Shown here: positions 11,201 to 47,171 of the stretch, one piece after another
Layout of the letters: each line of letters opens with the position of its first letter
Numbering within the stretch: the stretch's first letter is position 1
Assembly: GCA_910584685.1 (NCBI GenBank)
Contig: CAJUAO010000011.1
Coordinates: 22,300-86,299, forward strand
Origin: an uncultured Lachnospiraceae bacterium
GTDB taxonomy: Bacteria; Bacillota; Clostridia; Lachnospirales; Lachnospiraceae
DNA: 64,000 nt
Reading direction: 5' to 3'
The notes under the pieces: generated by a model
Told to the model about the DNA's origin: nothing
The model's input: the letters and a program-made list of their open reading frames with translations, nothing else
The model's database searches: none
Made by a program: the position numbers and the translations under genes

Positions 11201-13541
11201 CTTCATAATCCATGTTTAATAATAAATCCTGTAAATCAGATATTTTATTTTCTGCTGATGCAATCATGCCGCCATAAATTGCAACGGGATTAGTTAAATT
11301 TATTCCAATGCCGTTAGACCAATATCCTTTGTCATCATATTGCTGCTTGGCTTGTTTGTATTGTGACTTTGCTGTTTCAATATCATCATTTGCCTCAGAA
11401 ATTTTCCTTTGGATATCAAGCTTGGCATTTAAGTAATTTCCATAATTGGTTAGGTCTATATCATATGTTTTCTTTAAATTGTCTACCCAGCCTTTATTAT
11501 TCTCAATAAAACTATTCCACCATGTTTCACCATATATAGTTTCTTTATTAATATTATATTTTTCATAATTAAGCAGGTCATCTTTATATAGAGCACGTAA
11601 TGCTTTAACCATTTCTTCGGCATTACTTATTCCCATTGCTTCCATATTTTCTATAACAGTTTGTACTTCACTATTTGTCATAGAGTACAACCCTTTTAGG
11701 GTATCAGAAGAGCGAATATATTCAGTTACAATTTCATTAAATGCTGATTGAATTTCTTCGGTGGTTTTAGTTGGATTTCCTATGACAGACTCAAATAAAT
11801 CGTAACCATCTAAATCTGAAAGAATACTATCCCTTATGTTAAATAAAGTAGAAGATAGAACATATCCTTTATCCTGAAATTCTGTATAGGCTTCATTAAG
11901 GTTATTTATAGCAGAAGCAGCACTGGACAGAGATTCAACACCGTCAAGTAAATTCATAATATTAAGATAACAGGCTTCGGCAGATAATTTTGTATCTTTA
12001 AGCAGCTTAGAATATTCTGCCGTAGATGAAATTATTTCAGGGCTTAATTTTCCTGTTCTTGCTAATTCAAGAAGTTCCTTTTTTGCTTCTGCAAAGTCGG
12101 CTGCATTGAAGGCATCGTTGAAAGAAGTAATCAATTTTTCACTTTTTATTATTTTGTCTTCAAGTTTAAAAATCATATTATTAAAATATGCATCAAGTAT
12201 ATCAGATATTATAGGATAGCTATCTTTTAGTTTATTAAATACAGAAACCAAATTATTATAAACTATATCTTCATCATTATCTATATCATTTGTTAATTTA
12301 TCTAAATATTCACTCCATAAATCATTTATAACATCTGTATCAGAAAAAATCTCCTGTAATGATTTTGTGATTTCTTTACTGTCTGTAATACCACTCATAA
12401 ATAATCTGTCGATTATGCTGTTTATTTCCGTTGGGGTTAAGAAGCTGTTTAAATCATTAACAGTATCAGAAAACGCAGAATGTACATGGTCAAGTATATC
12501 CTCAAAACCGTTTTTGAGTTCCTCTTCAGAAGGAATCGATAGTTTAGATCCTTGAACACCATAACCACCATAATTATTAACCTTTTCCAATGCCTCTCTA
12601 TATATTTTTGCATACTCGTTTATAGTGCCTGAGAATTCACCCTTTTCTATAGCTTGGCCTATTAACTCATCTGCATATTCGCCAACTGTTTTAGAATAAT
12701 CAGTAGACCATTTTCCTTTTTTATACCATTTTTCTTTTTCATATTTATTATTCCATGTATAAAATTCTCTTATATTGTCAAAAGTCATATCAGAGCCAAA
12801 GCCACTGTTTTCAACTTCTGTATTAAGAGCAGTATTAAATTCCGCAGTGCTGCGTTTTTTTTCTGCTTCTTCAGCAGCTTTTTTCTGAAGTTCTATCTCA
12901 CGTTCTATTTGAAGATTTAAAATTTCATATGCATTTGACTGTTTAAGTATTTTGCTTGTTCCTGAGCCAAGTGTATCATTAAGCTCATCAGCCAATGAGT
13001 TCATTTTGGCTTGGCTGTATCTGGCGTCCTCAAGCTTTTCCTTCAGGTTTTCTAACGCCGTGATTTTAGATTCTGCTGTTGAAATGGTTTCTTCAGATTT
13101 GTCAATTATTTCCTGCTGTTTTTCCAGGTAACGTTCATTAGCAGAGGTAAGATATTGGATACCTTCAATTAGTTTAGATATAGCGATTGATATAGTTGTC
13201 ATTGCAAGCATGTTTCCGGCCGTAGAAAGACCTTTTAGTGCAATTTGACCTGCTTTTGATATCTTTGGAATTTGTTCTAAATTGACTGTTGCATCTCCTG
13301 CAGATTTTGCAATATTAGCAGCAGCAACAGATGCGTTTTGTAATGTTCTGTAATATGCCGTAGCGGGAGATGCTCCACGTTTTATTTCTGAATTATAAGC
13401 TTTCAGCGCATATATGTCACTGTTATTTAATACGCTTTTTTTCTTAAAAAAATCATTGTTCAAACTAAAAAAATTTTTTAATCCACTATTAATTGATAAT
13501 TTTGTATTTCCAAACTCATTAGTTATTGTTTTAAATATCAT
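8226..13541 (-). CDS. Tape measure protein, C-terminal part (putative exon 2)
   Basis: 1771-aa ORF, long coiled-coil-rich protein. Hydrophobic segments near its N-terminus continue the pattern of the upstream TP901-type core ORF. An in-frame TAA lies 6 nt upstream of the annotated ATG. No convincing RBS of its own. Confidence 0.8.
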   Translation of the reverse strand: MIFKTITNEFGNTKLSINSGLKNFFSLNNDFFKKKSVLNNSDIYALKAYNSEIKRGASPATAYYRTLQNASVAAANIAKSAGDATVNLEQIPKISKAGQIALKGLSTAGNMLAMTTISIAISKLIEGIQYLTSANERYLEKQQEIIDKSEETISTAESKITALENLKEKLEDARYSQAKMNSLADELNDTLGSGTSKILKQSNAYEILNLQIEREIELQKKAAEEAEKKRSTAEFNTALNTEVENSGFGSDMTFDNIREFYTWNNKYEKEKWYKKGKWSTDYSKTVGEYADELIGQAIEKGEFSGTINEYAKIYREALEKVNNYGGYGVQGSKLSIPSEEELKNGFEDILDHVHSAFSDTVNDLNSFLTPTEINSIIDRLFMSGITDSKEITKSLQEIFSDTDVINDLWSEYLDKLTNDIDNDEDIVYNNLVSVFNKLKDSYPIISDILDAYFNNMIFKLEDKIIKSEKLITSFNDAFNAADFAEAKKELLELARTGKLSPEIISSTAEYSKLLKDTKLSAEACYLNIMNLLDGVESLSSAASAINNLNEAYTEFQDKGYVLSSTLFNIRDSILSDLDGYDLFESVIGNPTKTTEEIQSAFNEIVTEYIRSSDTLKGLYSMTNSEVQTVIENMEAMGISNAEEMVKALRALYKDDLLNYEKYNINKETIYGETWWNSFIENNKGWVDNLKKTYDIDLTNYGNYLNAKLDIQRKISEANDDIETAKSQYKQAKQQYDDKGYWSNGIGINLTNPVAIYGGMIASAENKISDLQDLLLNMDYEAIIGSKINFASYTGTPKSPSSLSPDKDTSQTYDWIETKIKRLNEALDTIKAKANNTYSSWTKRNTELANAISKTKDAIELQSQAYTRYMQKADSVGLPEPYKTLVQKGAIDIGIILDETPEDKIIKDKISDYQTWYEKAQECLKTQQDLNSELNQLNTQKFDNIKSEYDAVINRMQSAYDLLENQITLLSSSGNYDTLRSKQADIVNKLQAQRNALQNNLNSSDIQQHTEQWYNLISQLDTLDSQILDAETALKNIDKLQFDNLKEAFDFDTSILEHALQTIQNKVDLLELKGQFANESYYNGMIEYTQKHLDTLKNERTQLQSILNNTLHKQGTAEWNDMYSTLMDIDKEIDSMTNNLVDFNNTIRDLNWEIFEYLEESLNRITEETDYYVELLSKKHLFDENGQITNYGTASMALHAAAYDVYKQQAQDYYEEVQDLQKQLINGAGDEVLAQYNEMVKAHQDAVLAAEDEKQSILDLIEDGYNAQLDALQRLIDKKKEQLNAEKNLYDYQKSIAEKTDNISSLEKQKLAYEGDTSEEAMSKIQQIRVQLEEAKADLKESEYEQYLSDTETMLDQLAEDYENWMNERLDHSDELIAQIISQISSQGDTINTTLKETSEYYGTFISDSLSTIFSSDSPFTQSLTGELKGGLSNVSNSLNSGLGGVSTSIAGTTTAINNLVSHVANLVNADESKTNAGSNIAANSNGNHNTGSSTNPYNPIINPAVNTPNTNTGNGNKNTINNPVSNSNPINPSSISSSSNTSKTGKSLLDSILISKKDYYPKNSLNIDTSVVDRLKYYDKDSSFSARAMYWSKIFGGAYTGSPSQNTKLLNYLKSNGYKSGTSNAARGYHWTQEDGEEIIYRTADGAVLTPLSSGDMVFDNESSRRLWELSQNPETYMKKYNIDPASITATIPKPTFNFSVPDFGSMANSQSSQVNVGDINVNLELPNVTDYSGFRNQLIKDNTFEKAVFTSINHALTGKGTPLDKLRHTR

Positions 13542-13554
13542 ACTATGTTATAAT
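13526..13554 (+). promoter_or_regulatory. Putative sigmaA promoter for the antisense zinc-ribbon gene
   Basis: -35 TTGTTT (13526-13531), 17-nt spacer, TG-extended -10 TGtTATAAT (13546-13554). It overlaps the start of TMP exon 2 on the opposite strand. Confidence 0.45.
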
Positions 13555-13618
13555 ATATAAATAAATACATATAAAGATATAATGTGGAGTTATATCTTTT
13601 TTATTTAAGGAGGATTTT

Positions 13619-13942
13619 ATGCAAATATATCAATGTCCTAATTGTGGAAGAACTTTTTCAGAGTTTGCAAATATATATTATTGTCCTGTTTGTAATTATA
13701 GACTTGTCAAACAGGAAGATATTAAAGAAATAAAACATCCTGAGCTGTCAGACCGTGATGAACATATTATTGGGGAATTGCCTGACCCAACGAAACCAAA
13801 TGTAGCTTGTCCCTATTGCACATCGTCAAATATTAAAAAAATTAGTAGCAGTAGTCGTTGGCTATCTATAGGCATGTTAGGCATATTCAGTAATAAGATA
13901 GGAAAAAATTTTCACTGTAATAATTGTGGAGCAAATTTTTAA
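13619..13942 (+). CDS. Double zinc-ribbon small protein (107 aa), antisense inside the TMP intervening sequence
   Basis: AAGGAGG RBS 7 nt before the ATG. Two CxxC...CxxC pairs (CPNC..CPVC and CPYC..CNNC) with a short hydrophobic stretch in the second ribbon. Confidence 0.7.
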   Translation: MQIYQCPNCGRTFSEFANIYYCPVCNYRLVKQEDIKEIKHPELSDRDEHIIGELPDPTKPNVACPYCTSSNIKKISSSSRWLSIGMLGIFSNKIGKNFHCNNCGANF

Positions 13943-14149
13943 ACACATTACAGAAATTTGCTTAATACTTTTTTAGTAAGAAGATTTTAAAAATATGTAT
14001 AGTTTATATGTTCAAATATGGGATACAAATAAAGTTTTAAGAAAACTTACCAGAGAAGTATTAAGCAATTTCGTTGTAATAACTGTAATTTGAATTTTTA
14101 AGTATAATAATTTGAGTTGAATAATCTTATATTTTATTTTTCTCCGTTT

Positions 14150-14650
14150 CTTCCACTATACGGCTAGGAGAATTCCTTGCATTATTTCATTTTTTGCTAT
14201 AAATAAATATAGCTGCTATAAAAAATAAAAGAGCAGCAGAACTCCTGATAGTTTTTACTCAGTCACGAGACAGTCTATCAACTGCGTTTCGAATCCCTCT
14301 TACAAGCCATTAATGACTCAAAATCGTTTAGACTCTGTGAACACTTCCATATCTGAATAATCAGACTTAGGGTATCCGTTGCTGATTGGAGGTTTAGTTC
14401 ATTTGAACCTTCACTTAGGCTTTCGCCATATGACTAATCACATTCGTATTTATATACGCTTTTGACTTTTCTTGCCATTACTGGCATCCTTTCGGAGTGC
14501 ATTCATACTTTACCGTTTCCGGTTATGTATTGTAGTGTGTGATTACTATATATTCTCTATAATTTTGCTTTCCAGCACTGGTATATAGCAAATACCAATT
14601 ACGATTTATTTTATAGAACATTGTAAGTTGACTAAGCTTACACATTCCTG
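14150..14650 (-). ncRNA. Group I intron ribozyme core
   Basis: Minus-strand RNA 14372-14319 reads CCCUAAGUC-UGAUUAUUCA-GAUAUGGAAGUGUUCACAGAGUCUAAACGAUUUUG. This is very close to the textbook Tetrahymena core CCUAAGUC-hairpin-GAUAUGGAUGCAGUUCACAGACUAAAUG. P3 pairing is CAAAAGCGU (14464-14456) with ACGAUUUUG (14327-14319). There are three GAAA-tetraloop hairpins. Confidence 0.85.
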
Positions 14651-14651
14651 C

Positions 14652-14711
14652 CTTTGAAATGTATGTTTATATAATTGTATACTTTGAAATGTATGTTTAT
14701 ATAATTGTATA
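14652..14711. repeat. Perfect 30-bp tandem duplication
   Basis: CTTTGAAATGTATGTTTATATAATTGTATA occurs at 14652-14681 and again at 14682-14711, just 3' (on the minus strand) of the stop of the TMP N-terminal ORF. Confidence 0.95.
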
Positions 14712-14717
14712 GCTTTC

Positions 14718-16049
14718 TTAGGCATGAAGGGCATATTCAAAACAATTTTTTGAAATCCGTACACTCATACGGCGTTTACCAATGTTCTTTATTCCTGAAA
14801 ACAATCCTGCGCCAAGTCCAATAGTACCTGCCGAACCAATAGAGCCGGTTACTTTATCAATAACTCCAACCACCCCGTTTAAGCTATTTATTATTTTTAT
14901 AAATGCATCAGAGTCTGCAATATTTCCAATGGTTTTTGTAAAGGTGTTGCTTAAGCGCTGAAGGCTTCCTTCCCACGAATTTGCTGTTTTTTCCACGTCA
15001 GCAGCCATTGAGCCGGCGCCGGAGTTATAATCCCTAAGCATTTCCTCATATAAAGAGTAATTTTCAAGAATAGCGTTAAGAGCGTCGGCTCTGTCCCCGC
15101 CGCCGACAGAATTAAGAAGATTAGCCCGTCTTGAGTCGCTTTCCTCAAGCCTTGTATACTTCTCTGATAATTCTTCTAAAATTTCCATCGGCTCCTTAAG
15201 AGAAACAACGCCATTCTTTACGGTTGACAAAGAAACGCCTAACTCATTACAGGCTTCTTCATATTTCGTCAGGGAGCTTTCATCAATAAAGTCGCCCCCG
15301 TCATTTGCGTCTCCTGTTATCTGCCGCAGATTCATTAAAATACCGTTAAAGGAATTTCCAATTTCTGCTCCGCCTTTTTTTGTAACGGAAAGTAATGTTC
15401 CAACAGCAGCAGTAGTTTCATCTATATCCATCTGAGAATCGGAAGCCCTTGAGCTTACAACAGACATAGCCTCAGCAAGCTCTGTCATATCAATGGAATG
15501 TCTGTTTGTAATATTGTTTGCGCCATCTAAAGCGGCGGTTAATGACTGTATGGAGCCGTTCATTTTATAGGCATTGTCAGCGGCCCTAATATATTCGTTT
15601 GCCAAATCAGAAGTAATACCTCCGGCAGACTGAATAGCTGTCGATAATTCGGCAATTTGTTCAGCGTTTTTATATCCTGCATCAGCTGCTGATTTAAATT
15701 CAGACAGGTAATCTAATGCCGTTTTGCCATATTTGCCGGCAATGGTAAAGGCATTATTTTTTACGTTTTCTAATTGTGATTTAGACAGGGAGCTGTTAGA
15801 TTTGCTTATTTCTGTTAATAAGGTATTAACATCCTTTAATTGTGATACGGCTTCCTTTGTCTTTTCAACAACGCCTGATACGGCATTACTTAAGGAAAAA
15901 AAATCTGTAATAATTTTACCGGCCTCTTTGAACTGGTCTTTTATAGCGTTGCCAAGCTTATCCAGGTAGTGCTGCTGTGAATCAATTTCCTTTAAATTAT
16001 TTTGCGTTGATTTGGATTGAGCGTCAGTTTGTTCATTATTATTTGCCAA
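14718..16049 (-). CDS. Tape measure protein, N-terminal part (putative exon 1; last ~15-20 codons probably intron-derived read-through)
   Basis: 443 aa with TTG start and AAAGGA RBS. The TIAGKYGKTALDYLSEFKSAADAGY... region resembles the TP901-family TMP core. It ends in a G/A/L-rich hydrophobic segment and then unrelated residues. Confidence 0.8.
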   Translation of the reverse strand: MANNNEQTDAQSKSTQNNLKEIDSQQHYLDKLGNAIKDQFKEAGKIITDFFSLSNAVSGVVEKTKEAVSQLKDVNTLLTEISKSNSSLSKSQLENVKNNAFTIAGKYGKTALDYLSEFKSAADAGYKNAEQIAELSTAIQSAGGITSDLANEYIRAADNAYKMNGSIQSLTAALDGANNITNRHSIDMTELAEAMSVVSSRASDSQMDIDETTAAVGTLLSVTKKGGAEIGNSFNGILMNLRQITGDANDGGDFIDESSLTKYEEACNELGVSLSTVKNGVVSLKEPMEILEELSEKYTRLEESDSRRANLLNSVGGGDRADALNAILENYSLYEEMLRDYNSGAGSMAADVEKTANSWEGSLQRLSNTFTKTIGNIADSDAFIKIINSLNGVVGVIDKVTGSIGSAGTIGLGAGLFSGIKNIGKRRMSVRISKNCFEYALHA

Positions 16050-17416: not shown

Positions 17417-17725
17417 TTATGTTTTGTTCATCTGCTTTAGGGCAGCCTCAAGCAGCACGCGAATTTGCTCATCTGTAATAAATTCTTTTTTAGAGTTAAA
17501 CATTTTGTCAATGAAGGTTATGACGTATTCGCGTTTTTCTTCACCAGATTTAGGAGCGTTAAAAAGCATTTCCGCAGCTTCCGCTGCCTTGGTAATCCAT
17601 TTAGAAGCCTCGTCAAGCTTTGCAGAAGATATTTTTGTTTTTATGTATGGAATAATATAGCCTGTGATAATTGCGCCAATCAAAGGAATAAGTGTTAAAA
17701 TTATTTTATATAAGTTGTCATTCAT
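17417..17725 (-). CDS. Holin (LL-H-type pattern)
   Basis: 102 aa with an N-terminal TM helix and a charged tail. It lies directly downstream of the amidase and resembles LL-H family holins as I recall them. Confidence 0.65.
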   Translation of the reverse strand: MNDNLYKIILTLIPLIGAIITGYIIPYIKTKISSAKLDEASKWITKAAEAAEMLFNAPKSGEEKREYVITFIDKMFNSKKEFITDEQIRVLLEAALKQMNKT

Positions 17726-17752: not shown

Positions 17753-18967
17753 TTATTCAATAATAATTTGAAACCTGCCGATTGATACGCCTTGTGTGCC
17801 CGCATATCCGTCGCAGCCGTTAGTCTTTTCATTGTCATACTGCCAGCTATAATAGTCCCTGCCTATAGGAGCAACCCTGTATTTTGCTTTTTTGTATGCG
17901 TAGCCGCCGGGAGTAATATAATAAACCTCAGCCATGTCAATATCCTTCTTACAGTCGCCGGCGTATCCGTTGTTAAAATCATTTATATTGTATCCTGTTA
18001 CATAAGGATACCAGCCGCCGCCTTTAACATGCACCCTGTATTTTACAGAGCCCTTATCAGTTCTGACACTAATGGCCCTGATAGGATTTTTGCCATCTCC
18101 GGCGTAGTCCTCAAGATTTTTAACCTCTGAATACCATCTGTCTCCTGCGTACACTCTGTAATAAACATTTACGTCAAGATTTTTTGGGGAAGAGGAAGGC
18201 TTTGAAGAAGCCGCTGTATTATTTGGTAAGGAGTCGGAAACAGCAGCATTTGCTGAGGATGTTGTTGATGATACATGTGAGGGATTTGTATAAATAACAT
18301 TTCCATTACTGTCAAAAACAGAATATCCGTTTATGCAAGCAGCCTTTGCATAAGCAAGAGAATAGAAGGCGCCAAGCTGGCCTGCCGCATCTTCCCACGT
18401 CTTTCTTACCCTGTAGAGCTCACCGGTAGCTGCAGAGCCTGAGGTTTTTGATAAGCTGTTTTTAAAATTATTCCATTTTGAGCTGTCGTTTCCATACCAG
18501 CCCTTCCAGCCGGGACAATGCTTTCCGCTCACATCAAAGTGTCTGTATACGTTAGAGGCAGGAATATTATATTTATCCATAATTTCCTTTCCCAAAGCAA
18601 TGGCATTTCCTATTGTAGCCTCTGAAATTTCACCGTTTACAGAGCACATTTCTACAGATATGCTGTTTGTGTTTGTTATTTTCCCATACATGGCTCCTCC
18701 GCCGGTAGCCTCGCAGTCAGAATATTTTCTGTCGCCTACAGCCCATGCGGTGACTAAATCAGGAACTGACTGATATACTGTATTATCATCAACAAAATAA
18801 TGGGCGGAGGCCTGTATTATGTTATTTTTAAAATAATTAGCATTGTTAGCCGCAGTGTCAGTCTGGTTTCCTGTGTAATGGTAAATAAGATATTTAATCG
18901 AAGAAGAAGCTCTCCTTACCCCGTAATTTTCCGGAGCTGATATTAATGTATATTTTGTAAACGCCAT
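17753..18967 (-). CDS. Endolysin: N-acetylmuramoyl-L-alanine amidase with C-terminal cell-wall-binding (ChW-like) repeats
   Basis: Amidase_2/PGRP-like N-terminus (HYTGN...SAHYFVD...HCPG). S/T-rich linker. Repeated YRV..GG.WY...GYAG units typical of clostridial ChW repeats. Confidence 0.85.
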   Translation of the reverse strand: MAFTKYTLISAPENYGVRRASSSIKYLIYHYTGNQTDTAANNANYFKNNIIQASAHYFVDDNTVYQSVPDLVTAWAVGDRKYSDCEATGGGAMYGKITNTNSISVEMCSVNGEISEATIGNAIALGKEIMDKYNIPASNVYRHFDVSGKHCPGWKGWYGNDSSKWNNFKNSLSKTSGSAATGELYRVRKTWEDAAGQLGAFYSLAYAKAACINGYSVFDSNGNVIYTNPSHVSSTTSSANAAVSDSLPNNTAASSKPSSSPKNLDVNVYYRVYAGDRWYSEVKNLEDYAGDGKNPIRAISVRTDKGSVKYRVHVKGGGWYPYVTGYNINDFNNGYAGDCKKDIDMAEVYYITPGGYAYKKAKYRVAPIGRDYYSWQYDNEKTNGCDGYAGTQGVSIGRFQIIIE

Positions 18968-19408: not shown

Positions 19409-20140
19409 TTATTCCTCAATAAGAACTAAATCAAGGATATTGTCGTCGCTGTCAGCCATAAGGTCGCAGGTTATTGTTACAGAGCCCGGGTCACCATTGT
19501 TTGAAAAGCTGAGTGAGAGATTACTCTGAGGCGCTGCCTTATATGCAGTAAGCTTATATGGAAGGACCTCGTCATCCTCTGTCTTCATAACAGTGTCGCC
19601 GTAAACGATAAAGTTCTTAGGGAAACTTGTAGACTTAATATTGATTCTCTGAGCCTTATCAGCAACCTCCTGCATGTAGTAAACGATTACCTTATCGCCG
19701 CCTGTAAGAGCAGAAGTAAGGGTAATAGTCTTGTCAGCAACAGTGCATGGAAGCTCTGTTCCGCAGTCGTCATCTGCCTTATAGACAACAACAGAGCCTG
19801 AAACTGGAACATCGTCTATAGCAATAACAGTGCCGTCATCATTTACAGACTTTTCAACCCTTGTCACAAACCTTGCAGACTTAGAAACCTCACCGCCTGT
19901 AATAAGCTGCCATAATTTCACGGTCTGAATCTGTGTTTCAATAGTAAGCGTACCAGCTCTTTCGCCGCTAAACTGAATTTTCTTAGGATGTCCCTGACCG
20001 CCGTAAGCAAATACAGACTCACCTATTAATTCAGTTGTAGTTACGTTAGCAAAGTCTAAGTTTAAAAAAGGTTTCTTTGTAGAATAATCTACGAAAATAA
20101 GGTCACAGACCTCTCTGTTAGCCATGTTTGGATTTGACAT
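19409..20140 (-). CDS. Putative major tail (tube) protein
   Basis: ATG at 20140 is preceded by AAGGAGGAA. 243 aa, beta-rich. It is followed by strong terminators, which is typical of a highly expressed structural gene. No motif-level proof. Confidence 0.5.
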   Translation of the reverse strand: MSNPNMANREVCDLIFVDYSTKKPFLNLDFANVTTTELIGESVFAYGGQGHPKKIQFSGERAGTLTIETQIQTVKLWQLITGGEVSKSARFVTRVEKSVNDDGTVIAIDDVPVSGSVVVYKADDDCGTELPCTVADKTITLTSALTGGDKVIVYYMQEVADKAQRINIKSTSFPKNFIVYGDTVMKTEDDEVLPYKLTAYKAAPQSNLSLSFSNNGDPGSVTITCDLMADSDDNILDLVLIEE

Positions 20141-20207
20141 AAATAATTCCTCCTTAAAATTGTTTTTTGATTGTATAATAAAGCGGATGTCATGGTTTGA
20201 CAGCCTC

Positions 20208-21002
20208 TTAATTACCGTTATCTGTTCTTTTAAACCATGAGGCCGCGTCAAACTGGTTGTCCTTGTTTCCCCATGCGGCGACGCTCATGGACTGGATATT
20301 GTATATATTGTTGCTTGAAAGCCTTTGAAAGCAGTCCCAAACCTGATATACCGTTAAATCCCATATATTTAAAATGTTAAGGGACTGGCTTTTGTTTGCA
20401 ACGGCAGAAATAATATTTCCAAGCTCCATATTTTTATCTGCCTTAGTATGTTTAGCTTTTTCGTCTCTTCCTTTTTGAAGCTTTTTCATTATTTCAACAG
20501 CTTTCCGGTTTTTTGCCTTTGATAAATCGTCCTGCTGACTGGATTTAATAAAATTTCGCTGACATATTATGTCACAGACCTGTGGGTATGTTTCCCTGGA
20601 AATGCTGCCTACAGCTGAGGCTTCCTCTGATATTTCTCCATTATGGGGTACAGGCGTGTTTTTTTTAACAAGGAAACATTTATGCTCAACAGAGTAAGCA
20701 ACCTCCTCCTTAATAAAAAAGTTTAGTACAGCCTGTAACAATTTTATTGAATCACTGTTTAAGGTAAGCAAATCATATATGCTTATTTGAGCCTTTTCAG
20801 TTTCTGTCAGCAATTCGGCCTGTTCAGGCTTTCCAATCATAGTAAAATATGTTTTTAAGTCCATCAGCAGGACGGACAGATAATATTGATATATATTTAT
20901 ACCAATAGAAGCTATATCCTTTAATTTAGGCGATATAACGCCAATGGCCTTTTGTATATATACAGGCTCAGGCGACAACAGTTCAAAGTAGCTAATCTTC
21001 AA
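20208..21002 (-). CDS. Hypothetical phage structural/assembly protein
   Basis: ORF frame 20208-21065. The likely start is TTG at 21002, overlapping the upstream stop (TTGA) and preceded by AGGTGG. The start is uncertain. Confidence 0.5.
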   Translation of the reverse strand: MKISYFELLSPEPVYIQKAIGVISPKLKDIASIGINIYQYYLSVLLMDLKTYFTMIGKPEQAELLTETEKAQISIYDLLTLNSDSIKLLQAVLNFFIKEEVAYSVEHKCFLVKKNTPVPHNGEISEEASAVGSISRETYPQVCDIICQRNFIKSSQQDDLSKAKNRKAVEIMKKLQKGRDEKAKHTKADKNMELGNIISAVANKSQSLNILNIWDLTVYQVWDCFQRLSSNNIYNIQSMSVAAWGNKDNQFDAASWFKRTDNGN

Positions 21003-21532
21003 AGAACCACCTGCCTTCCGTGATTTTTGCGTCTTAGGAATGTCTGATATGTGTAGGAAAGACACTTTCCGTAGAAGCTTTTGTCGGGAATATACGGTTT
21101 AACAGGATTCTCCTTTGCCAAAAGCATATTGCCAATAGAATATTTTTCCTTTATCATATCAAGAGCGCTTTGATTAAGAACAGTTGAATTAATTACCTGA
21201 ATGGCGCTGTCAACTCTGTTTCCGAATACGCCGATAGAATTAAAGTAATTTTTATCCTCATCAGAAAGACTTAAGGCATCCTTGCGGCATACTGCCATAA
21301 TATCAACTCCGACCTCTTTAATATGCTGGTTTTCTACCTTTGTTAAATATGTTTCAATAAAAACGGCAAAGTCCTTATCAGACAATGCTCCATCTATATA
21401 TGGAGTGTCGAAGCAATGCTCCATATCAGGCATAATCAACCGGACAATATCAGCCGTATCTAAAAAGAGAGCTTTTAGGCTGTCCTTTATTCTGCTCATA
21501 TCGGAGAGCGAATCATAATATTTTTCTGACAT
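20999..21532 (-). CDS. Hypothetical phage protein (177 aa; possible tail completion/terminator by position)
   Basis: AGGAGGAA RBS. It lies between the HU-like gene and the tail genes. No motif recognised. Confidence 0.5.
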   Translation of the reverse strand: MSEKYYDSLSDMSRIKDSLKALFLDTADIVRLIMPDMEHCFDTPYIDGALSDKDFAVFIETYLTKVENQHIKEVGVDIMAVCRKDALSLSDEDKNYFNSIGVFGNRVDSAIQVINSTVLNQSALDMIKEKYSIGNMLLAKENPVKPYIPDKSFYGKCLSYTYQTFLRRKNHGRQVVL

Positions 21533-21568: not shown

Positions 21569-21907
21569 CTAACTATTAAAATATCCGTTAAGCCTTCTGT
21601 TATAGTACCTTGTAATTTTTGGCCTTGCCCATATTTTAGGGGAGGTTTCAAATAATTCTCCTGTTTCGGGATGTATCATTTTCTTTTCACCCTTATATGA
21701 ACAGTCAATGCTGATTCCGTTAAAAAGCTTTAAGGAAACCTTATCAACGGAGGAAGCTAAAGAAAGCAGCTCAAAGATATAATTTTCCAGCGTCAGGTAC
21801 ACAGATTGGGCTACGGGAAGGGGAATGCCTTCACGTATGGCGATTTCTTTTATTATTTGTTCCTTATTTATTACCGTATAAAACACCTCCTGCATGTATG
21901 CTTCCAT
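21569..21907 (-). CDS. HU/IHF-like DNA-binding protein (YonN-like position)
   Basis: ~110 aa. INKEQIIKEIAIREG resembles the HU N-terminal helix, and HPETGELFETSPKIWARPKI resembles the HU beta-arm (NP.TGE..I.A......F). It sits directly downstream of the YonO-like gene. Confidence 0.6.
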   Translation of the reverse strand: MEAYMQEVFYTVINKEQIIKEIAIREGIPLPVAQSVYLTLENYIFELLSLASSVDKVSLKLFNGISIDCSYKGEKKMIHPETGELFETSPKIWARPKITRYYNRRLNGYFNS

Positions 21908-22008
21908 AGTAGCCTGAAAAGCTTTCGACCGTTTCAGACGGACTTTTCGGCTGGTTTTTGAAATTTATAGTCCCCATTGAGCGGACTAAATTTTTTGTAA
22001 GGCTAATT

Positions 22009-24780
22009 CTAGTTTTTATGTGACCTCCAATATTCCCGCTTAATGCGTTTATTTTCCTCATGCTGGCACAGGCTGCATCTGCACGCTTTAGAGTTTAGAG
22101 CGTCAACCTCAAGCCATTCCCCACAGTCAATACATTTAATTACCTTAGTTTTCTTAGGAGTATAGTTTTGTTTTAAATTTTCAACAATATACTTACCATA
22201 GCAAAACCATAGCAATTCCTTAGCCCTTCTGTTTTTCTGCCCATAAAGATGCTTAACCAGCATATCGGTTGTTTCTGTATCAGAATATCCAAAGACAGAC
22301 AGCTCGTCTCTTATCCGACAGGCAAGAAAGTGCAAATTATTATGAAATTCATCCTTCATTGAAATTTTAAAATGATATGTATTATTAAGCTCTTTATATC
22401 TTTCAATGAGTCTTTCATCTGTTTTTATATTTGCATTGCGCATAAGATATCTATAGTCTATAGGCTTTAAGCCTGATTTTCTTGTGTTAAGCCGGGGGTT
22501 AGGAATTAAGGAGTCCAGCTTGTTGACAATGCTGTCATTTATTTTTTCAACCTGCGTCTCCTCCTTATCCTTGGCATATACAAAGAAATGAGGAACCTTT
22601 TTTCCCGTAAATTCTTTTATTGCTTTGTCAATATTGTCCGGTCTTTCAGGCTTGTACAGAGTTTTTGCAAAATCAATGCAGAAGTTGTTTTCCATACATA
22701 AAAGCTTTACAATATCGCATGCCTTACTTTTATCATCATGGGAGCCTGTAATAAAAATATCGGAATTCCATATTTTTGTAATGTTATTGCTATATGTTCC
22801 TATATTACTTCCCGTAAAGGCTGCATTTAAGCCCTTATATATGTTTGCATTATTTAACATGGCAGGCTCTGATTTCTTCATATTATAATACAGGGGAACA
22901 ACCTCCTTCATTTCTCTTTTGCCAATATCCACTATTATTTTGCTGCCGATAACAAGAGAACGGTCGCCGTCAACGTCAAACTGAAGTATTTTGCTGATTA
23001 GGTCGTGGCAGCTTGTATAAAGCGCCTGCGTATTAAACCATTCTGAAATCATTTTCTTTCTCTCATCAGATGATATGTTTGCCGCGTTTTCCCTTATGGC
23101 ATGCTCCTTGTATAAATGGGGAGAGCGAAGGCAGTCAAGCTCCTTACGATGCTTGTACAGGCTGCACCAAACCTCAGATTTACTTAACAGACCTTCAGGG
23201 CTTTTAATTCCTAAAAACCAGTACTCACAGGCGGCGTAGAAATCAGGCAGTATAAAGGTGTATTTTCCCTCTGTTTCAAGCTTTGCGGATTTATACTGCT
23301 TTACAAGACTATCCTTTATGCTTTTAAGTATATCCTTAAAGTAAGGGTCATTCATAATATCAGGATATATTTTTACAGCCTCCTGAAGGGGAGTCATATT
23401 TGTATTGTATGGCGTAACGCCAAATACCTTCTGCATTCCGGAAACAGAGGAACAGAGGCTGTTCAGTCTGTCTATGGAGGGCGCTGCAATTTTTGCTAAT
23501 TCCAAATCAGTCATTCCGGTTAAGGTCTGCAATTCCTGATAGTTAAGTCTTGAATTAGGTATCCTTTCCTCCTCCACATTACAAATACCTGCCTTACAGC
23601 CATAGGATTTAAAATATTCCTTGTATTCCTCCCATGAAGAATAATATTTATACATCTTAAACTGACTTTTAGTGAAAATAATATAAATATTTTCCTTGAT
23701 AATATCATGCTCCCTGCCATAAATATCCTTAAGTGTGCCAATAGTATTGTCATGATATTTTTCACGCCATTTAAGAATAAGCTTTCTAAAATCGAATACT
23801 CCTAACAGTCCCTTGAGCCATGGAGCGCGAAACATCCTGTTTCTTCCGAATAAGACCATACCTGCTCCGTCAGTGTGGGTAATGGGAATCTCGCCCTTAG
23901 TTCTGACGATTGAATAGTCGGTATCGTCTATAAAATCATATTCGCCAAATACATTTGTCTCAAAATCATCAATGACAATAGTTCTGTCTATGTCAAAATC
24001 AGACCATTCGTCAGTGGCAGAATTGGCAAGGGCCATATATGCAAGATGCTTGTTTACGTTGTTGCCTCCTTTTTCATTGATTTTGTCAATGGTAAGACCA
24101 CACATAATAGTTTTTTCGTATCTGTCCCACAGCGTTTCCCTGATAAAGACGGCTTTTTTTTCACGAATCTGACCTGCCGACGAGGTATAATACCTGTATT
24201 TTTCACCCTTGTATGTAAAGCCGTAAAAGACAAGGTCCTTAAAAATATCAAAGTAATATACCTGTACAACAATAATATCCTCTGTAAAATCATTCATTTT
24301 TAGTCCAATCATTCTGGTTAATGAGGATTCGAAAAGTGAGATTACGTTTTTTTCTGATATAGTATTTTCATTTAGTTTTCTTGGCGGATAAATACAATCA
24401 TTATCCTTATTAATACGGCAAGCTTCTTTAGCCTTAATCTTATTAGACAACAGAAGCGCCAGTTTGTTTTTTAAGGCGTCTGCCGCCTTAGTCTTTAATT
24501 TTTTTATTCGTGAAAGCTCAATGTAAAAGCATAATTTGGAATAGCTGCCGTCAATTATTTTTATGGAAAGCATATCAGGGTTTTCATGGGCTGCCTTTTG
24601 CAAATCCTTACAGGAATATCCTGCTTTTGTAAGCTGTGCAGTCAGGACTTTGATTTTTTCTGCCACATTTTTAAGCTCACTCCTGATTTTTGCGTTCTTA
24701 TTATGTAATGCTCTTTCCTTATTTGTATAAAAATTTCCTGTATCAACAGAATAAATATTAATCTGATTTTCCAACGCCAT
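22009..24780 (-). CDS. YonO-like single-subunit two-barrel RNA polymerase with C-terminal zinc ribbon
   Basis: 923 aa with AGGAGGAA RBS. RSPHLY (aa 552-557, nt 23110-23127) and QFDVDGD (aa 602-606, nt 22963-22977) match the R.P.LH...DxDGD catalytic barrel of beta-prime/RdRP/YonO. TDGAG and RAPWLKG lie at aa 303-323. C-terminal CIDC...CRCSLC. Confidence 0.7.
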   Translation of the reverse strand: MALENQINIYSVDTGNFYTNKERALHNKNAKIRSELKNVAEKIKVLTAQLTKAGYSCKDLQKAAHENPDMLSIKIIDGSYSKLCFYIELSRIKKLKTKAADALKNKLALLLSNKIKAKEACRINKDNDCIYPPRKLNENTISEKNVISLFESSLTRMIGLKMNDFTEDIIVVQVYYFDIFKDLVFYGFTYKGEKYRYYTSSAGQIREKKAVFIRETLWDRYEKTIMCGLTIDKINEKGGNNVNKHLAYMALANSATDEWSDFDIDRTIVIDDFETNVFGEYDFIDDTDYSIVRTKGEIPITHTDGAGMVLFGRNRMFRAPWLKGLLGVFDFRKLILKWREKYHDNTIGTLKDIYGREHDIIKENIYIIFTKSQFKMYKYYSSWEEYKEYFKSYGCKAGICNVEEERIPNSRLNYQELQTLTGMTDLELAKIAAPSIDRLNSLCSSVSGMQKVFGVTPYNTNMTPLQEAVKIYPDIMNDPYFKDILKSIKDSLVKQYKSAKLETEGKYTFILPDFYAACEYWFLGIKSPEGLLSKSEVWCSLYKHRKELDCLRSPHLYKEHAIRENAANISSDERKKMISEWFNTQALYTSCHDLISKILQFDVDGDRSLVIGSKIIVDIGKREMKEVVPLYYNMKKSEPAMLNNANIYKGLNAAFTGSNIGTYSNNITKIWNSDIFITGSHDDKSKACDIVKLLCMENNFCIDFAKTLYKPERPDNIDKAIKEFTGKKVPHFFVYAKDKEETQVEKINDSIVNKLDSLIPNPRLNTRKSGLKPIDYRYLMRNANIKTDERLIERYKELNNTYHFKISMKDEFHNNLHFLACRIRDELSVFGYSDTETTDMLVKHLYGQKNRRAKELLWFCYGKYIVENLKQNYTPKKTKVIKCIDCGEWLEVDALNSKACRCSLCQHEENKRIKREYWRSHKN

Positions 24781-24795
24781 GATTGTTCCTCCTTT

Positions 24796-25368
24796 TTAAG
24801 CTTTAAGCCATACCTCCCAATATCCGTCGCAATATCTTGTTTTTAAGGTATCATAATGAAATTTCAAAAGCTCCGTAATCTGATAAATATAATAGCAGTA
24901 ATCTGTCTGTCCGCTGCGAATGTTATTTAAAACGTCATTAATATATGAGCAATAGGACTGCCAGTTTGTCTGTCCGTGAAATTCACCCATTGTTTCATTA
25001 TTCCACATACCTGACTCTCTTGAAAATTTACCGCCAAGCTTTTTAACCTCCTTTCTGTACGGAGTGACAAACATTTTTCTAAGAAGAAACTCTTGCTGCC
25101 ATTTTTCGTCGGTAAGGGAAGTAGAAGGTCTTCCGTCAGTATTTGAGATTAATCTCATTTCCCTTAATTCCTCCAAGGTAATATTCCTATATTTTTCTTT
25201 CATTTTTTTCTCCCTTTCTAATGTATTTTGCAGATTAACTGCATCTGCCTGATTATTTATTCTCTTTTTGTTTGGTGAATTAGTACTGAAATCATCTAAA
25301 TCAATCTCGCCTCCAAAAGAAGAATGTGACCTGTTATATGCTCCTGTTTTGTAAAATAATGTTGTCAT
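24796..25368 (-). CDS. Hypothetical protein (190 aa), first gene of the minus-strand operon
   Basis: AAAGGAGAAAAA RBS. No motif recognised. Confidence 0.55.
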   Translation of the reverse strand: MTTLFYKTGAYNRSHSSFGGEIDLDDFSTNSPNKKRINNQADAVNLQNTLEREKKMKEKYRNITLEELREMRLISNTDGRPSTSLTDEKWQQEFLLRKMFVTPYRKEVKKLGGKFSRESGMWNNETMGEFHGQTNWQSYCSYINDVLNNIRSGQTDYCYYIYQITELLKFHYDTLKTRYCDGYWEVWLKA

Positions 25369-25570
25369 TGTATTTTTCTCCTTTATATTTTTAATTCTGA
25401 TAGCTGCAATATATATTTCTACATTAGAAATTAAAAACCCATCGTTTAATCACAAAAAATATTATAGAAGTTTTTTTGTTTTTAAGGGTAATACTAAGTC
25501 CGTCTTATTGGACATAAAAGGTGATACCATTATTTGGTAAAAATACCTGTTTTATATTACAAAAGAAAAA

Positions 25571-25584
25571 CGAACTGTTGTTCG
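25571..25584. promoter_or_regulatory. LexA (Cheo/SOS) box 1
   Basis: CGAACTGTTGTTCG is a perfect match to the Firmicutes consensus CGAAC-N4-GTTCG. Confidence 0.8.
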
Positions 25585-25593
25585 GAAAAATGG

Positions 25594-25622
25594 TTGACAA
25601 GAACGCATGTTCGTGATATATT
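25594..25622 (+). promoter_or_regulatory. SigmaA-type promoter of the sigma-factor/DUF262 operon
   Basis: -35 TTGACA (25594-25599), 17-nt spacer, TG-extended -10 TGaTATATT (25614-25622). Confidence 0.75.
25600..25613. promoter_or_regulatory. LexA (Cheo/SOS) box 2, inside the promoter spacer
   Basis: AGAACGCATGTTCG matches GAAC-N4-GTTC, with 13 of 14 positions agreeing with the full consensus. It occupies the -35/-10 spacer. Confidence 0.75.
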
Positions 25623-25664
25623 AAAAAAACACAAAAGAAAAAAATATAAGGAAGGTACTTTAAA

Positions 25665-26222
25665 TTGGAAGAAATATTGGAACTTTATTATGCAGACAAT
25701 GCCCGGAAACTGCACAATATGGTAGACACTGTTTTACGGAGGCTTGGATTTTATTGCATAGGAAATATTGAAGATTTCTATTCCCTTGCAAATGAGGTTT
25801 TTGCTGACGTAATAGTAAAATATGACGAGGGACGGGACTTTGACGCTTTTTTACACACATGTCTTTCAAACAGGTTTAAGACGGAAATGACTGCAAGAAA
25901 CAGGCAGAAAAGACTGGCTGACAAAATGGCGGTGTCAATTTATACGTCTGTTAATGATGACGATAATTCTACATTAGGTGATATTATTCCAGACAGCTTT
26001 AGTATTGAAAAGGAAATTTTTGAAAAGAGGGAGGAGGTATTAAACGAAAGAATACTGCTATATTTAAACAGACTTTCAAATCTTCAAAGAGAGGTGCTAA
26101 GACTTAATGCGTCGGGATATTTGCCTAATGAGATTAAGGAGAAGCTGCATATAACCGAAAAGCAGTATTCAGACTGCAATGCGGCAATTCACTCATATAA
26201 GAATGTATCGGTATTATTTTAA
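25665..26222 (+). CDS. Small sigma-70 family factor (TcdR/UviA/Xpf-like)
   Basis: 185 aa with TTG start after AAGGAAGG. Region-2-like FDAFLHTCLSNRFKTEMTARNRQKR. Region-4 HTH LQREVLRLNASGYLPNEIKEKLHITEKQYSDCNAAI. Confidence 0.7.
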   Translation: MEEILELYYADNARKLHNMVDTVLRRLGFYCIGNIEDFYSLANEVFADVIVKYDEGRDFDAFLHTCLSNRFKTEMTARNRQKRLADKMAVSIYTSVNDDDNSTLGDIIPDSFSIEKEIFEKREEVLNERILLYLNRLSNLQREVLRLNASGYLPNEIKEKLHITEKQYSDCNAAIHSYKNVSVLF

Positions 26223-26247
26223 CAAAAGAAGAAAGAGGTGTTTAAGG

Positions 26248-27630
26248 ATGGCAAGACCACGAAAACAAACCTATACTATGGAAATGTACTTAGACAAGAT
26301 AAGAGACGGCGATATATGCAATGATGCAGACGTTCAAAGAAATTTTGTGTGGAATAACGAGCAGATTAATGAATTAATAGTTACAGTGCTTACAGACGAT
26401 TATATTCCGCCTATTATTCTTGGGGAAGAAAATAATTCACAGCTTCATATTGCAGACGGAGGCTGTCGAAGCGCAGCATTAAGCAGATTCAGATACGGAA
26501 ATTATAAAATTACGTCAGCTATTGAGGATTCGATTATTACCTATAAGAAAAAGGTTAAGACTGACAACAGTAAAATTATATGGGAGGACGCCGTATTTGA
26601 TATTAAAAATAAAACATATGAAAAGCTGCCGGACGAGCTGAAAAAGAAGTTTGACGAATATCAGATAGAGACTGTTATCCATGAAAACTGCGACAGATAC
26701 AAAATATCAAAATATATTAAAAGGTATAACAATCATGTTTCAATGAACACAAACCAGAAGGCGTTTACATATCTGTATAATTTTGCCGGATATGTACGGC
26801 AGATTTTAGACAGCAGGTTTTTTCTTGACTACAGCAGCTATACGGAGACAGAAAAAACAAAGGGTATGGCTGAGAGAATAATCGTTGAAACCATTATGTG
26901 TACAAATTATCTGGATAATTGGAAAAAACAGACGAAGGAAATTTGCAAGTTTTTGAATAAGAATGGAACAAACGCAGAGTTTGAAAGGTTTGCTGATAAT
27001 ATCCACAGGCTGGAAAATATAATTACTGATGAGACTAAGGACATATTTAACAGCAAGGATTCCTTTATTTTTCTGACTTTGTTTGACAGATTTACTGAAT
27101 TAAAGGTTGATGATGCAAGATTTGCAGATTTCCTTAAGGAATTTAAGAATAATCTGCGACTGGTTAAAGCTAATGATAAGGGGCTGTTGTTTGACCAGAT
27201 TGATAAGGACAAAGGAACTAAGGATAAGGCGGTTATTATTGCAAAATTAGATATGCTTGAAGGCTTAATGCTGGAATTTTTACATTATAAGGATAAACCG
27301 GATAATCATGCTTCCGGCAATGACAGCGTAGAATTATTTATATTGGAAAATGTAAAGATAGATAAAAAAACACTGCAAAAGGATATGGATTTGTATCTGG
27401 ATACATTAGAGGGCAGCTATGGGCTAAAGGAAAAATGTATAAGAGTCGGCTCAAGGCTCCTTGATGAGAGAAACAGACCTTCCCTTCTTGCAATGGTTGC
27501 CTATTCATATAAGACAGGTCAGGATTTGGATGACTGGCTGACTGAATATGCAAAAAATCACAAAACATATATTGCAGACCAAAAAAAGAATTACTTACAT
27601 ATGTTAAATGATTTTAAAAGATATCAATAA
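26248..27630 (+). CDS. DUF262 (ParB/GmrSD N-terminal-like) domain protein without recognisable nuclease domain
   Basis: ATG at 26248 after GAAAGAGG. DVQRNFVWNNEQINELIVTVL...IPPIIL...IADGGCRSAAL matches the DUF262 QR..vW...LI.S....P.i...DGqQR pattern. No DUF1524/HNH His-motif is seen in the C-terminal 300 aa. Confidence 0.7.
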   Translation: MARPRKQTYTMEMYLDKIRDGDICNDADVQRNFVWNNEQINELIVTVLTDDYIPPIILGEENNSQLHIADGGCRSAALSRFRYGNYKITSAIEDSIITYKKKVKTDNSKIIWEDAVFDIKNKTYEKLPDELKKKFDEYQIETVIHENCDRYKISKYIKRYNNHVSMNTNQKAFTYLYNFAGYVRQILDSRFFLDYSSYTETEKTKGMAERIIVETIMCTNYLDNWKKQTKEICKFLNKNGTNAEFERFADNIHRLENIITDETKDIFNSKDSFIFLTLFDRFTELKVDDARFADFLKEFKNNLRLVKANDKGLLFDQIDKDKGTKDKAVIIAKLDMLEGLMLEFLHYKDKPDNHASGNDSVELFILENVKIDKKTLQKDMDLYLDTLEGSYGLKEKCIRVGSRLLDERNRPSLLAMVAYSYKTGQDLDDWLTEYAKNHKTYIADQKKNYLHMLNDFKRYQ

Positions 27631-47119: not shown

Positions 47120-47171
47120 CATATAAGTAATAAAAAATTTAGTGTATATAAGGGAATGAGAGGGGAAGCAT

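Follow-up and report, generated by a model that had tools for sequence, protein, structure and literature searches.

What transcribes the late genes of a phage-like element that carries a tail and lysis module and no detectable genes for a head? The question is raised by a 64,000-nucleotide stretch of DNA from an uncultured Lachnospiraceae bacterium (assembly GCA_910584685.1, contig CAJUAO010000011.1, positions 22,300 to 86,299 of the forward strand), referred to below as the window, in which an element of about 32 kb encodes on the minus strand a 923-residue protein (22009-24780), followed by a 112-residue protein (21569-21907) and then by genes for a phage tail and for lysis. An initial annotation, made from the letters and a list of open reading frames (ORFs), took the larger protein for a relative of YonO, the single-subunit RNA polymerase of the Bacillus phage SPbeta, took the smaller one for an HU-like protein, and proposed that the element transcribes its own late genes independently of the host RNA polymerase. 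Both reading frames are present as described, and that interpretation proved largely right. The best explanation of the locus overall, and one that we regard as probable, is that a predicted polymerase of the YonO family would drive the late unit of a headless element.

YonO of SPbeta is a strict DNA-dependent and highly processive RNA polymerase (Forrest et al. 2017, PMC5467207), which in vitro strongly prefers DNA templates and nucleoside triphosphate substrates, contains an essential triad of aspartates and is required for plaque formation (PMC5467207). As the initial annotation had stated, it transcribes the late genes of SPbeta; there are 37 of them, structural and lysis genes, which strictly need YonO and are transcribed by it as one operon with a start upstream of yonK (PMC5467207). 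The same study noted relatives in Firmicutes genomes and left open both the promoter of YonO and its need for a helper factor (PMC5467207); our search of the literature found nothing after 2017 that settles promoter or cofactor, and no paper that treats YonO together with YonN. The family consists of single-polypeptide two-barrel DNA-dependent polymerases, distant kin of the beta/beta-prime core of cellular RNA polymerase, and YonO, the smallest known relative of that enzyme, is thought to resemble its single-chain ancestor.

The 923-residue protein is a YonO-family polymerase

A tblastn search of deposited phage genomes with the 923-residue protein, whose gene has an ATG start, aligned it to SPbeta yonO with 46% identity over 83% of the query (E = 0), and the best match was CLG_B2308 of the Clostridium botulinum phage D-1873 (50% identity, 84% of the query). 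All SPbeta-like Bacillus phages were also among the matches, as was Psychrobacillus phage Perkons at 40% identity and 96% coverage. The profile phrog_8308 covers residues 3-911 with an E-value of 3e-242, and the Pfam family PF05183 (RdRP, for RNA-dependent RNA polymerase) scores 30.9 bits, above its gathering threshold of 23.8. This match to the YonO family is far beyond chance, and by sequence comparison the protein is a genuine member with unambiguous homology, that is, a new member of an already known family. The family is large, with 1122 clusters at 50% identity matching the protein at E <= 1e-3 and 353 at E <= 1e-30. When the sequence was compared with solved structures, no YonO or close relative was found, and the only hit was a chance match to FlhA (E 0.14).

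The peptides quoted in the initial annotation are all present in the translation. The sequence QFDVDGD (residues 600-606, 22963-22983) holds the predicted catalytic triad D602/D604/D606, and its DVDGD pairs with DNDGD of SPbeta YonO in a three-way alignment that includes the D-1873 protein; its reading as the DxDGD loop of two-barrel polymerases is borne out by conservation in all homologs examined. Upstream of it, with 39 residues between the two motifs and 50 from start to start, lies CLRSPHLYKEH (residues 550-560, 23101-23133), an R-x-P-x-L-H motif like the RAPTLH of beta-prime. The segment TDGAG...RAPWLKG (residues 303-324, 23809-23874) carries conserved basic and glycine motifs, and a C-terminal CxxC...CxxC pattern (C883/C886/C902/C905, 22066-22134) forms a Cys4 zinc-ribbon-like motif. 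In the three-way alignment, LRSPHL and the four ribbon cysteines are identical among the window polymerase, SPbeta YonO and the D-1873 protein. In an alignment of 25 homologs that are 55-90% identical, D602, D604, G605, D606, L551-L556 and all four cysteines are invariant, and D602, D604, D606, R552, P554 and L556 remain so in a 24-sequence alignment that reaches down to about 29% identity, as do D304, G305, R318, K323 and G324. The cysteines of the ribbon are at least nearly invariant down to about 30% identity. Because they are invariant in the alignments of homologs, every motif that had been picked by eye sits on a family-defining position. The TDGAG...RAPWLKG segment is a candidate for part of the second, beta-like barrel, and its five invariant residues fit such a barrel.

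An AlphaFold2 model of the polymerase built on 25 sequences was of moderate quality (predicted local distance difference test score, pLDDT, 69.5). Its seven best matches among solved structures, found with Foldseek, were all two-barrel RNA-dependent RNA polymerases (Arabidopsis and maize RDR2, and QDE-1), with E-values down to 3e-7 and a probability of 1.0 for the whole chain, and its top matches in BFVD were phage models named 'RdRP' (E 3e-17). These matches, which are of the whole chain and not of each barrel, would fit two double-psi beta-barrels in one chain; the model is poor at residues 303-328 and 584-608. The predicted fold agrees with that of two-barrel RNA-dependent RNA polymerases, which is weaker evidence than the sequence. 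The ribbon region is modelled as two beta-hairpins at residues 878-893, and the N-terminal part as a long helical hairpin (about residues 20-135, 24375-24722) whose helices at 20-53 and 80-123 have pLDDT values of 82-90.

An HU-fold protein is encoded directly after the polymerase

The 112-residue protein, whose translation may start at an ATG at 21895, was predicted to be a divergent DNA-binding protein of the HU/IHF fold. Its model (pLDDT 86.9) has helices at residues 15-26 and 30-52, five strands and a last helix at 100-108, which is the helix-helix-strands-helix order of HU, and the 36 best matches in the PDB were all HU or IHF (Foldseek E from 1.3e-5; template modelling (TM) score up to 0.65 on the query and 0.78 on the target). 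The assignment to HU rests on this fold, since a profile search of solved structures gave only a weak match to TF1 of phage SPO1 (E 0.64). The Pfam family PF00216 (Bac_DNA_binding) was found in 16 of 18 homologs at E-values up to 0.1, the best being 7e-7. At the arm tip, the window protein reads H-P-E-T-G-E where HU has R-N-P-x-T-G-E, and P80, G83 and E84 of this Pro-x-x-Gly-Glu arm are invariant with YonN of SPbeta and the HU protein of D-1873; the arm segment is absent from four distant members of the family. The family also has an invariant C-terminal motif of its own, IW-x-x-P-x-x-TR-x-YNR-x-LN. Judging from the model, the protein would have the HU/IHF fold and belong to a separate, divergent family of HU proteins.

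The neighbourhood of the polymerase gene was compared in 80 species-level genomes encoding a relative of the polymerase, mostly Lachnospiraceae. A member of the HU-like family lies directly downstream of the YonO gene on the same strand in 75 of the 80 loci by a strict rule and in 78 by a looser one, and the order YonO-then-HU recurs in SPbeta and in D-1873. Some loci, mostly complete SPbeta-like Lachnospiraceae phages, contain two HU-type genes (L007, L008, L011, L013, L015, L034, L054, L079, L096 and L097), the divergent one right after YonO and a canonical HU gene 2-5.4 kb downstream. The parallel with yonO-yonN that the initial annotation drew holds for gene order and fold. The HU-like gene may nevertheless not be the ortholog of yonN, because the complete-phage relatives hold the HU-like protein plus a canonical HU further downstream.

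A conserved motif in the spacer after the polymerase gene

The spacer between the polymerase and HU-like genes (21897-22008, minus strand) contains two short dyad-symmetric hairpins and then a conserved motif, and is a candidate terminator followed by a candidate late promoter. Spacers were compared across 72 non-identical loci, in which they are usually 100-250 nt long. The consensus motif TTTGTGCGTATAAGGGAA occurs at the same place of the spacer in most of these loci, with one copy per locus in the DNA read. The inverted repeats upstream of it vary in sequence between loci and keep their self-complementarity; the folding energy is below that of shuffled controls (z < -2) in 58% of loci, with a median z of -2.4. 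The variant in the window is GAAAGCTTTTCAGGCTACTATGGAAG, at about 21897-21923 on the minus strand, and this variant is nearly identical in the three closest relatives, the phage loci L007, L096 and L097, in which the sequence on either side has diverged and the stems of the hairpins carry paired changes. The motif holds a TATAAG box that could be a -10-like element. An ordinary sigma-A promoter was ruled out, as the motif has no conserved -35 box and has a G at the position of the conserved last T of the -10 box. The only other match to the motif matrix above a score of 15 in the 64 kb, AATTTAGTGTATATAAGGGAATGA (47136-47159, plus strand, score 21.4), lies in host DNA upstream of a gene at 47172 and was judged to be a chance occurrence. 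We infer that the spacer may combine a stop signal for the early transcript with a late promoter, probably that of YonO.

Headless and complete-phage loci

Sorted by the surroundings of the polymerase gene, 54 of the 80 loci were headless (class A) and 15 were complete SPbeta-like phages (class B); the remaining 11, several of them at contig ends, were unclassified. A pair of genes upstream of the polymerase, coding for a sigma-70-like protein and, overlapping it, a DUF262 protein, separates the classes, being present in 54/54 of class A and 0/15 of class B, and its two members always occur together. After the HU-like gene, class A loci have lysins, a tape measure protein and relatives of YomV and YomU, with no terminase among the families listed, and class B loci have relatives of yonJ and yonG, terminase and a Clp protease. 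Beyond the DUF262 gene, class A loci run into diverse host genes, with no integrase among the families listed. Among the large ORFs downstream of the HU-like gene in headless loci, 10 of 123 match class V aminotransferase (for example in L042 and L059), an unexpected cargo beside tail and lysis genes.

The YonO proteins of class A are only about 50-57% identical. In a quick neighbour-joining tree, class A makes up a single large group, inside which a few class B members fall, and the window polymerase groups with class B phages, to which it is 69-77% identical. From this nesting, together with the place of the window polymerase among class B, it follows that exchange between phages and headless elements has taken place more than once. 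The exact window YonO protein was found in 106 blocks of the collection. A fixed chromosomal position for the element was considered and rejected, as only one other locus (L039) adjoins rimP-nusA and the flanks are otherwise diverse host genes; in a related species, the fibre genes are directly followed by rlmN, rsmB and fmt. The headless setting with its sigma-like/DUF262 module, the near-obligatory HU-fold partner and the candidate promoter are the less expected part of these results.

Gene content and borders of the element

Gene content was read across the element, the left limit being fibre genes that lie outside the window and were read on an identical contig (L089), and the right limit the DUF262 gene. 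The genes that follow the HU-like gene, all on the minus strand, code for a 177-residue protein without a family match (20999-21532), a YomV-like protein (20208-21065; phrog_4051, with PF27211 YomV_2nd on the identical gene in L003), a YomU-like tail tube protein (19409-20251; phrog_2729, with PF27173 YomU_Tube on the identical gene), an amidase endolysin (17753-18967; Amidase_2 and endolysin phrogs), a holin (17417-17725; phrog_6918, PF09682) and three small proteins. They are followed by a tape measure protein in two ORFs (14718-16049 and 8226-13541; phrog_4211, PhageMin_Tail), a distal tail protein (7213-8031; DUF6558, phrog_33), a fibre or minor tail protein of 1332 residues (3214-7212; Peptidase_S74 and tail fibre phrogs) and two proteins without an assigned function. 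Near the left end of the element, a P63C-domain or antirepressor-like gene (11-811, plus strand) stands between two sets of fibre genes; further left, on the identical contig, come two more fibre-like proteins and then ThiF, HTH-AIRS, DUF3021 and LytTR genes. Six ORFs of the element, of 124, 160, 177, 192, 251 and 263 residues, have no family match.

Two features of the tail module stand apart. The holin and amidase genes lie in its middle rather than at its end, with the tube gene on one side and the tape measure genes on the other. The two tape measure ORFs are separated by 1.2 kb (13542-14717) that hold only an opposite-strand ORF for a 107-residue zinc-ribbon protein (13619-13942) and give no Rfam match; larger inserts occur at the same site in other loci, with a NUMOD1 protein in L094 and five small opposite-strand genes, three of them coding for about 180 residues, in L092.

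On the other side of the polymerase, a 190-residue protein without a family match (24796-25368, minus strand) is encoded by the first gene of the YonO transcription unit; its homologs occur in only 12 of the 54 class A loci. A divergent promoter region (25369-25664) separates this unit from the gene for a 185-residue sigma-70-family-like (ECF/SigH-like) protein on the plus strand (25665-26222), and contains two sequences that are matches to the sigma-70-type consensus only: TTGACA-17-TATATT with a TG at 25594-25622 (plus) and TTAAAA-16-TACAAT at 25394-25367 (minus). TIGR02937 matches residues 16-167 of the 185-residue protein with an E-value of 3e-7 and 30.2 bits, below its cutoff of 42.9, and the matches to Pfam Sigma70_r2 and to sigma phrogs are weak. 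The edge of the element is marked by the gene for a DUF262 (GmrSD_N, ParB-like) protein of 483 residues (26179-27630, plus strand), for which PF03235 is above threshold and the PADLOC defence candidate NsnA is a weak match (E 7e-12). To its right lie host genes for a sugar-binding lipoprotein, a chemotaxis receptor, an alcohol dehydrogenase, rimP and nusA; host genes flank the element on both sides.

All ORFs across the roughly 32 kb are intact. From the fibre genes to the DUF262 gene, no terminase, portal, capsid, integrase or replication genes were detected, and no element gene matched a tail sheath; no tRNA genes were found, and positions 1-28000 of the window gave no Rfam match. A set of genes of the tailocin type is present, comprising the YomU tube, tape measure, DUF6558 distal tail, fibre, holin and amidase genes. 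In the DNA examined, this is a headless element of the SPbeta type. The statement of the initial annotation that the polymerase heads a structural operon thus stands for the tail and lysis genes, which follow on the same strand, and fails for head and packaging genes, which the element lacks. From its gene content, the element would be either a producer of tail-only particles, resembling F-type tailocins, or a long-retained remnant.

An insertion within the HU-like gene

In 3 of the 24 contigs with an identical polymerase, an insert of about 90 kb splits the HU-like gene after about codon 30 (near 21818 in the window) and separates the polymerase from the tail genes; it was seen in loci L004, L005, L006 and L088, and the other 21 of the 24 contigs have the uninterrupted layout. 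At the insertion site, the unsplit gene reads GAAGGCATTCCCCT|TCCCGTAGCCC. Three large serine recombinases and a PemK toxin are encoded at the start of the insert, a ParM-like protein and a 1790-residue LPXTG/SpaA adhesin at its end. The insert may be an integrative element that targets the HU-like gene, in which case excision could restore the gene. The possibility that this segment is the missing head module was ruled out: the state conserved across 75-78 of 80 loci is that of an unsplit HU-like gene, and the 20 kb of the segment that were read hold serine recombinases, PemK, the ParM-like protein and the LPXTG adhesin, and no phage head genes.

A model for late transcription and its alternatives

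Given the order and strand of the genes, which are consistent with a role of the polymerase in late-gene transcription, the following course of events is proposed, with DNA copying and late transcription carried over from SPbeta, and the cascade, the start site and help from HU drawn from the anatomy of the locus and from comparison. On induction, host RNA polymerase, probably directed by the sigma-70-like protein of the element, would transcribe the unit of the 190-residue protein and YonO. YonO, with Mg2+ held by D602/D604/D606, would then transcribe the downstream genes, that is, those for the HU-like, tube, lysis, tape measure, distal tail and fibre proteins, as one long late unit, whose probable start is the conserved motif of the 100-nt spacer that follows the YonO gene. 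The HU-fold protein, which we take to be a partner of YonO because it is almost always encoded directly after it, would serve as a dedicated DNA-bending protein, helping YonO to find or open the promoter or to use the template. The independence from host RNA polymerase proposed in the initial annotation is probably only partial in this model, because the sigma-70-like gene is strictly linked to the headless layout (54 of 54 loci), and the sigma-70-like protein would use the host core polymerase to switch on the YonO gene.

We consider it unlikely that the locus is instead a decaying remnant of an SPbeta-like prophage, in which YonO and the HU-like protein are intact relics that drive nothing useful. 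Such a remnant would account for the missing head, packaging, integrase and replication genes and for the strains in which the 90-kb insertion parts YonO from the tail genes, and the closeness of the window YonO to those of complete phages (69-77% identity) suggests a fairly recent phage origin or an exchange of modules. However, the ORFs over the whole element are intact, all family-invariant residues are kept, the exact YonO protein recurs in 106 blocks with 21 of the 24 contigs read uninterrupted, and the headless layout with the sigma-like/DUF262 pair is kept in 54 species-level genomes at a YonO identity of about 50-57%. Neutral decay is hard to reconcile with the retention of this layout in so many genomes with diverged YonO proteins. 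In PBSX, the sigma factor Xpf reportedly drives transcription of the tail and lysis genes, and by this precedent host RNA polymerase with the sigma-70-like factor could transcribe the late genes here, leaving YonO a different or narrower task. The linkage of the sigma-like gene to every headless locus and the TATAAG box of the spacer motif, which could be -10-like, speak for this arrangement, which we nonetheless hold to be distinctly improbable: the motif is also found in complete-phage loci (L008, L011, L013, L054 and L079) where the DNA read contains no sigma-like gene, it lacks a conserved -35 box because its upstream hairpins vary, and in SPbeta the late genes have a strict need for YonO (PMC5467207).

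Several database records call relatives of the protein RNA-dependent RNA polymerases; that it is one itself we regard as very improbable indeed. The name of the matching Pfam family, the best structural matches (the eukaryotic enzymes RDR2 and QDE-1) and the records of phages Perkons and PMBT24, which label the relative an RNA-dependent RNA polymerase, all point that way; these database names, however, come from the Pfam label and not from experiment, the gene lies in a double-stranded DNA element directly ahead of late genes, and the protein is 46% identical to YonO, with its strong preference for DNA templates (PMC5467207).

Several observations weigh against the reading of a YonO-family polymerase that drives the late unit. 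The polymerase model has low confidence around the active-site loops, with residues 303-328 and 584-608 poor, and its TM-scores are only 0.36-0.38 to RDR2 and 0.27-0.38 over the seven best matches; for the HU-like protein, PF00216 gives E 0.005 and 17.4 bits, below the threshold of 22.4. The copy of the spacer motif in the window is a weak match to the family consensus (position weight matrix score 7.6), and in the family the lack of a conserved -35 box makes the motif less compelling as a promoter. Neither the SPbeta region nor D-1873 gave a convincing match to the motif, the best hits in SPbeta scoring below 11 and lying outside the yonN-yonK spacer, and the mapped start of YonO transcription in SPbeta lies after yonN, not before it (PMC5467207). 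The sigma-like factor could itself drive the late genes, and the HU-like gene or the whole element may be dispensable, given the 90-kb insert in some strains. The headless state applies as far as the apparent left end of the element and not to the roughly 14 kb of contig beyond it, which were not read. Polymerase activity, promoter and particle production at this locus are all predictions from sequence.

A wider reading, which we offer tentatively and consider rather doubtful, is that a widespread Lachnospiraceae family of capsid-less and integrase-less tail-and-lysis elements has a private cascade, in which the sigma-70-like and DUF262 proteins would lead to YonO, and YonO with its HU-fold partner would act at a single late promoter, TTTGTGCGTATAAGGGAA, behind co-varying hairpins. 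If true, this would make it the first tailocin-like system to carry an RNA polymerase of its own, and would provide the first candidate promoter and cofactor for polymerases of the YonO type. The comparison of 80 genomes offers three testable handles on how YonO finds a promoter, namely the HU-fold neighbour, the spacer motif with its hairpins, and a naturally minimal system whose polymerase appears to have a tail-and-lysis operon as its only target. Should headless elements make particles, common gut Firmicutes would have a tailocin of a new kind, which might affect competition among gut strains. If none of this holds, the result is still a correct, ordinary annotation of a YonO homolog in a prophage-derived region.

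Comparison with known systems

The polymerase shares the DxDGD loop and the Pfam RdRP family with RDR2 and QDE-1, its best solved-structure matches, from which it differs in sequence (10-13% identity); RDR2 and QDE-1 copy RNA, whereas YonO copies DNA. The HU-fold protein shares the helix-helix-strands-helix topology and the Pro-x-x-Gly-Glu arm signature with HU and IHF proteins, including TF1 of SPO1, but falls below the Pfam threshold, has its own C-terminal motif and is strictly linked to the YonO gene.

SPbeta YonO has the same aspartate triad, R-x-P-x-L motif and Cys4 ribbon, an HU-type gene next to it, and the same position upstream of late structural and lysis genes on one strand. The window protein differs from it by about 50-60 extra N-terminal residues, which form the predicted helical hairpin, and by a 10-residue insert near residues 675-687. 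Its partner is a divergent HU-fold protein rather than a canonical HU, and the window lacks the 1.7-kb spacer with a non-coding RNA that precedes the late genes in SPbeta; the element as a whole lacks head genes and has the sigma-like/DUF262 pair in addition. In many SPbeta-like Bacillus phages (such as Goe11, Goe14, phi3T and BUCT083), the yonO match is in two pieces around an extra gene, and in BUCT083 the matching region is annotated with a GIY-YIG nuclease, which suggests an intron or another mobile insertion; the window gene is uninterrupted. Phage D-1873 (CLG_B2308 and hup) has the same YonO-then-HU order, but there the partner is annotated as a canonical HU, and PhoH, tRNA and antirepressor genes follow instead of tail genes. 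Closer to the window are the complete Lachnospiraceae phages L007, L096 and L097, with YonO proteins 69-77% identical, the same HU-like family downstream and the same motif variant. They differ in lacking the sigma-like/DUF262 pair and in the genes that follow, which are YonJ, a second, canonical HU, YonG, ORFs of 589 and 515 residues and YonD; the 589- and 515-residue ORFs are assigned as terminase and portal by their position in the SPbeta order and not by a family match.

The defective phage PBSX is alike in having its own sigma-like regulator, reportedly Xpf. Among the papers listed by our literature search, none joined YonO with a tailocin, PBSX, phage tail-like particles or gene transfer agents, and none was on a Lachnospiraceae tailocin. 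F-type (non-contractile) tailocins of Gram-positive bacteria, such as monocin and efagin, resemble the element, a putative producer of particles, in having chromosomal tube, tape measure, distal tail, fibre and lysis genes and no head genes, and the absence of head genes is given as a defining trait of efagins (efagin preprint). That preprint, which also compares the monocin locus, mentions no RNA polymerase, whereas the cluster in the window is headed by YonO and its HU-fold partner.

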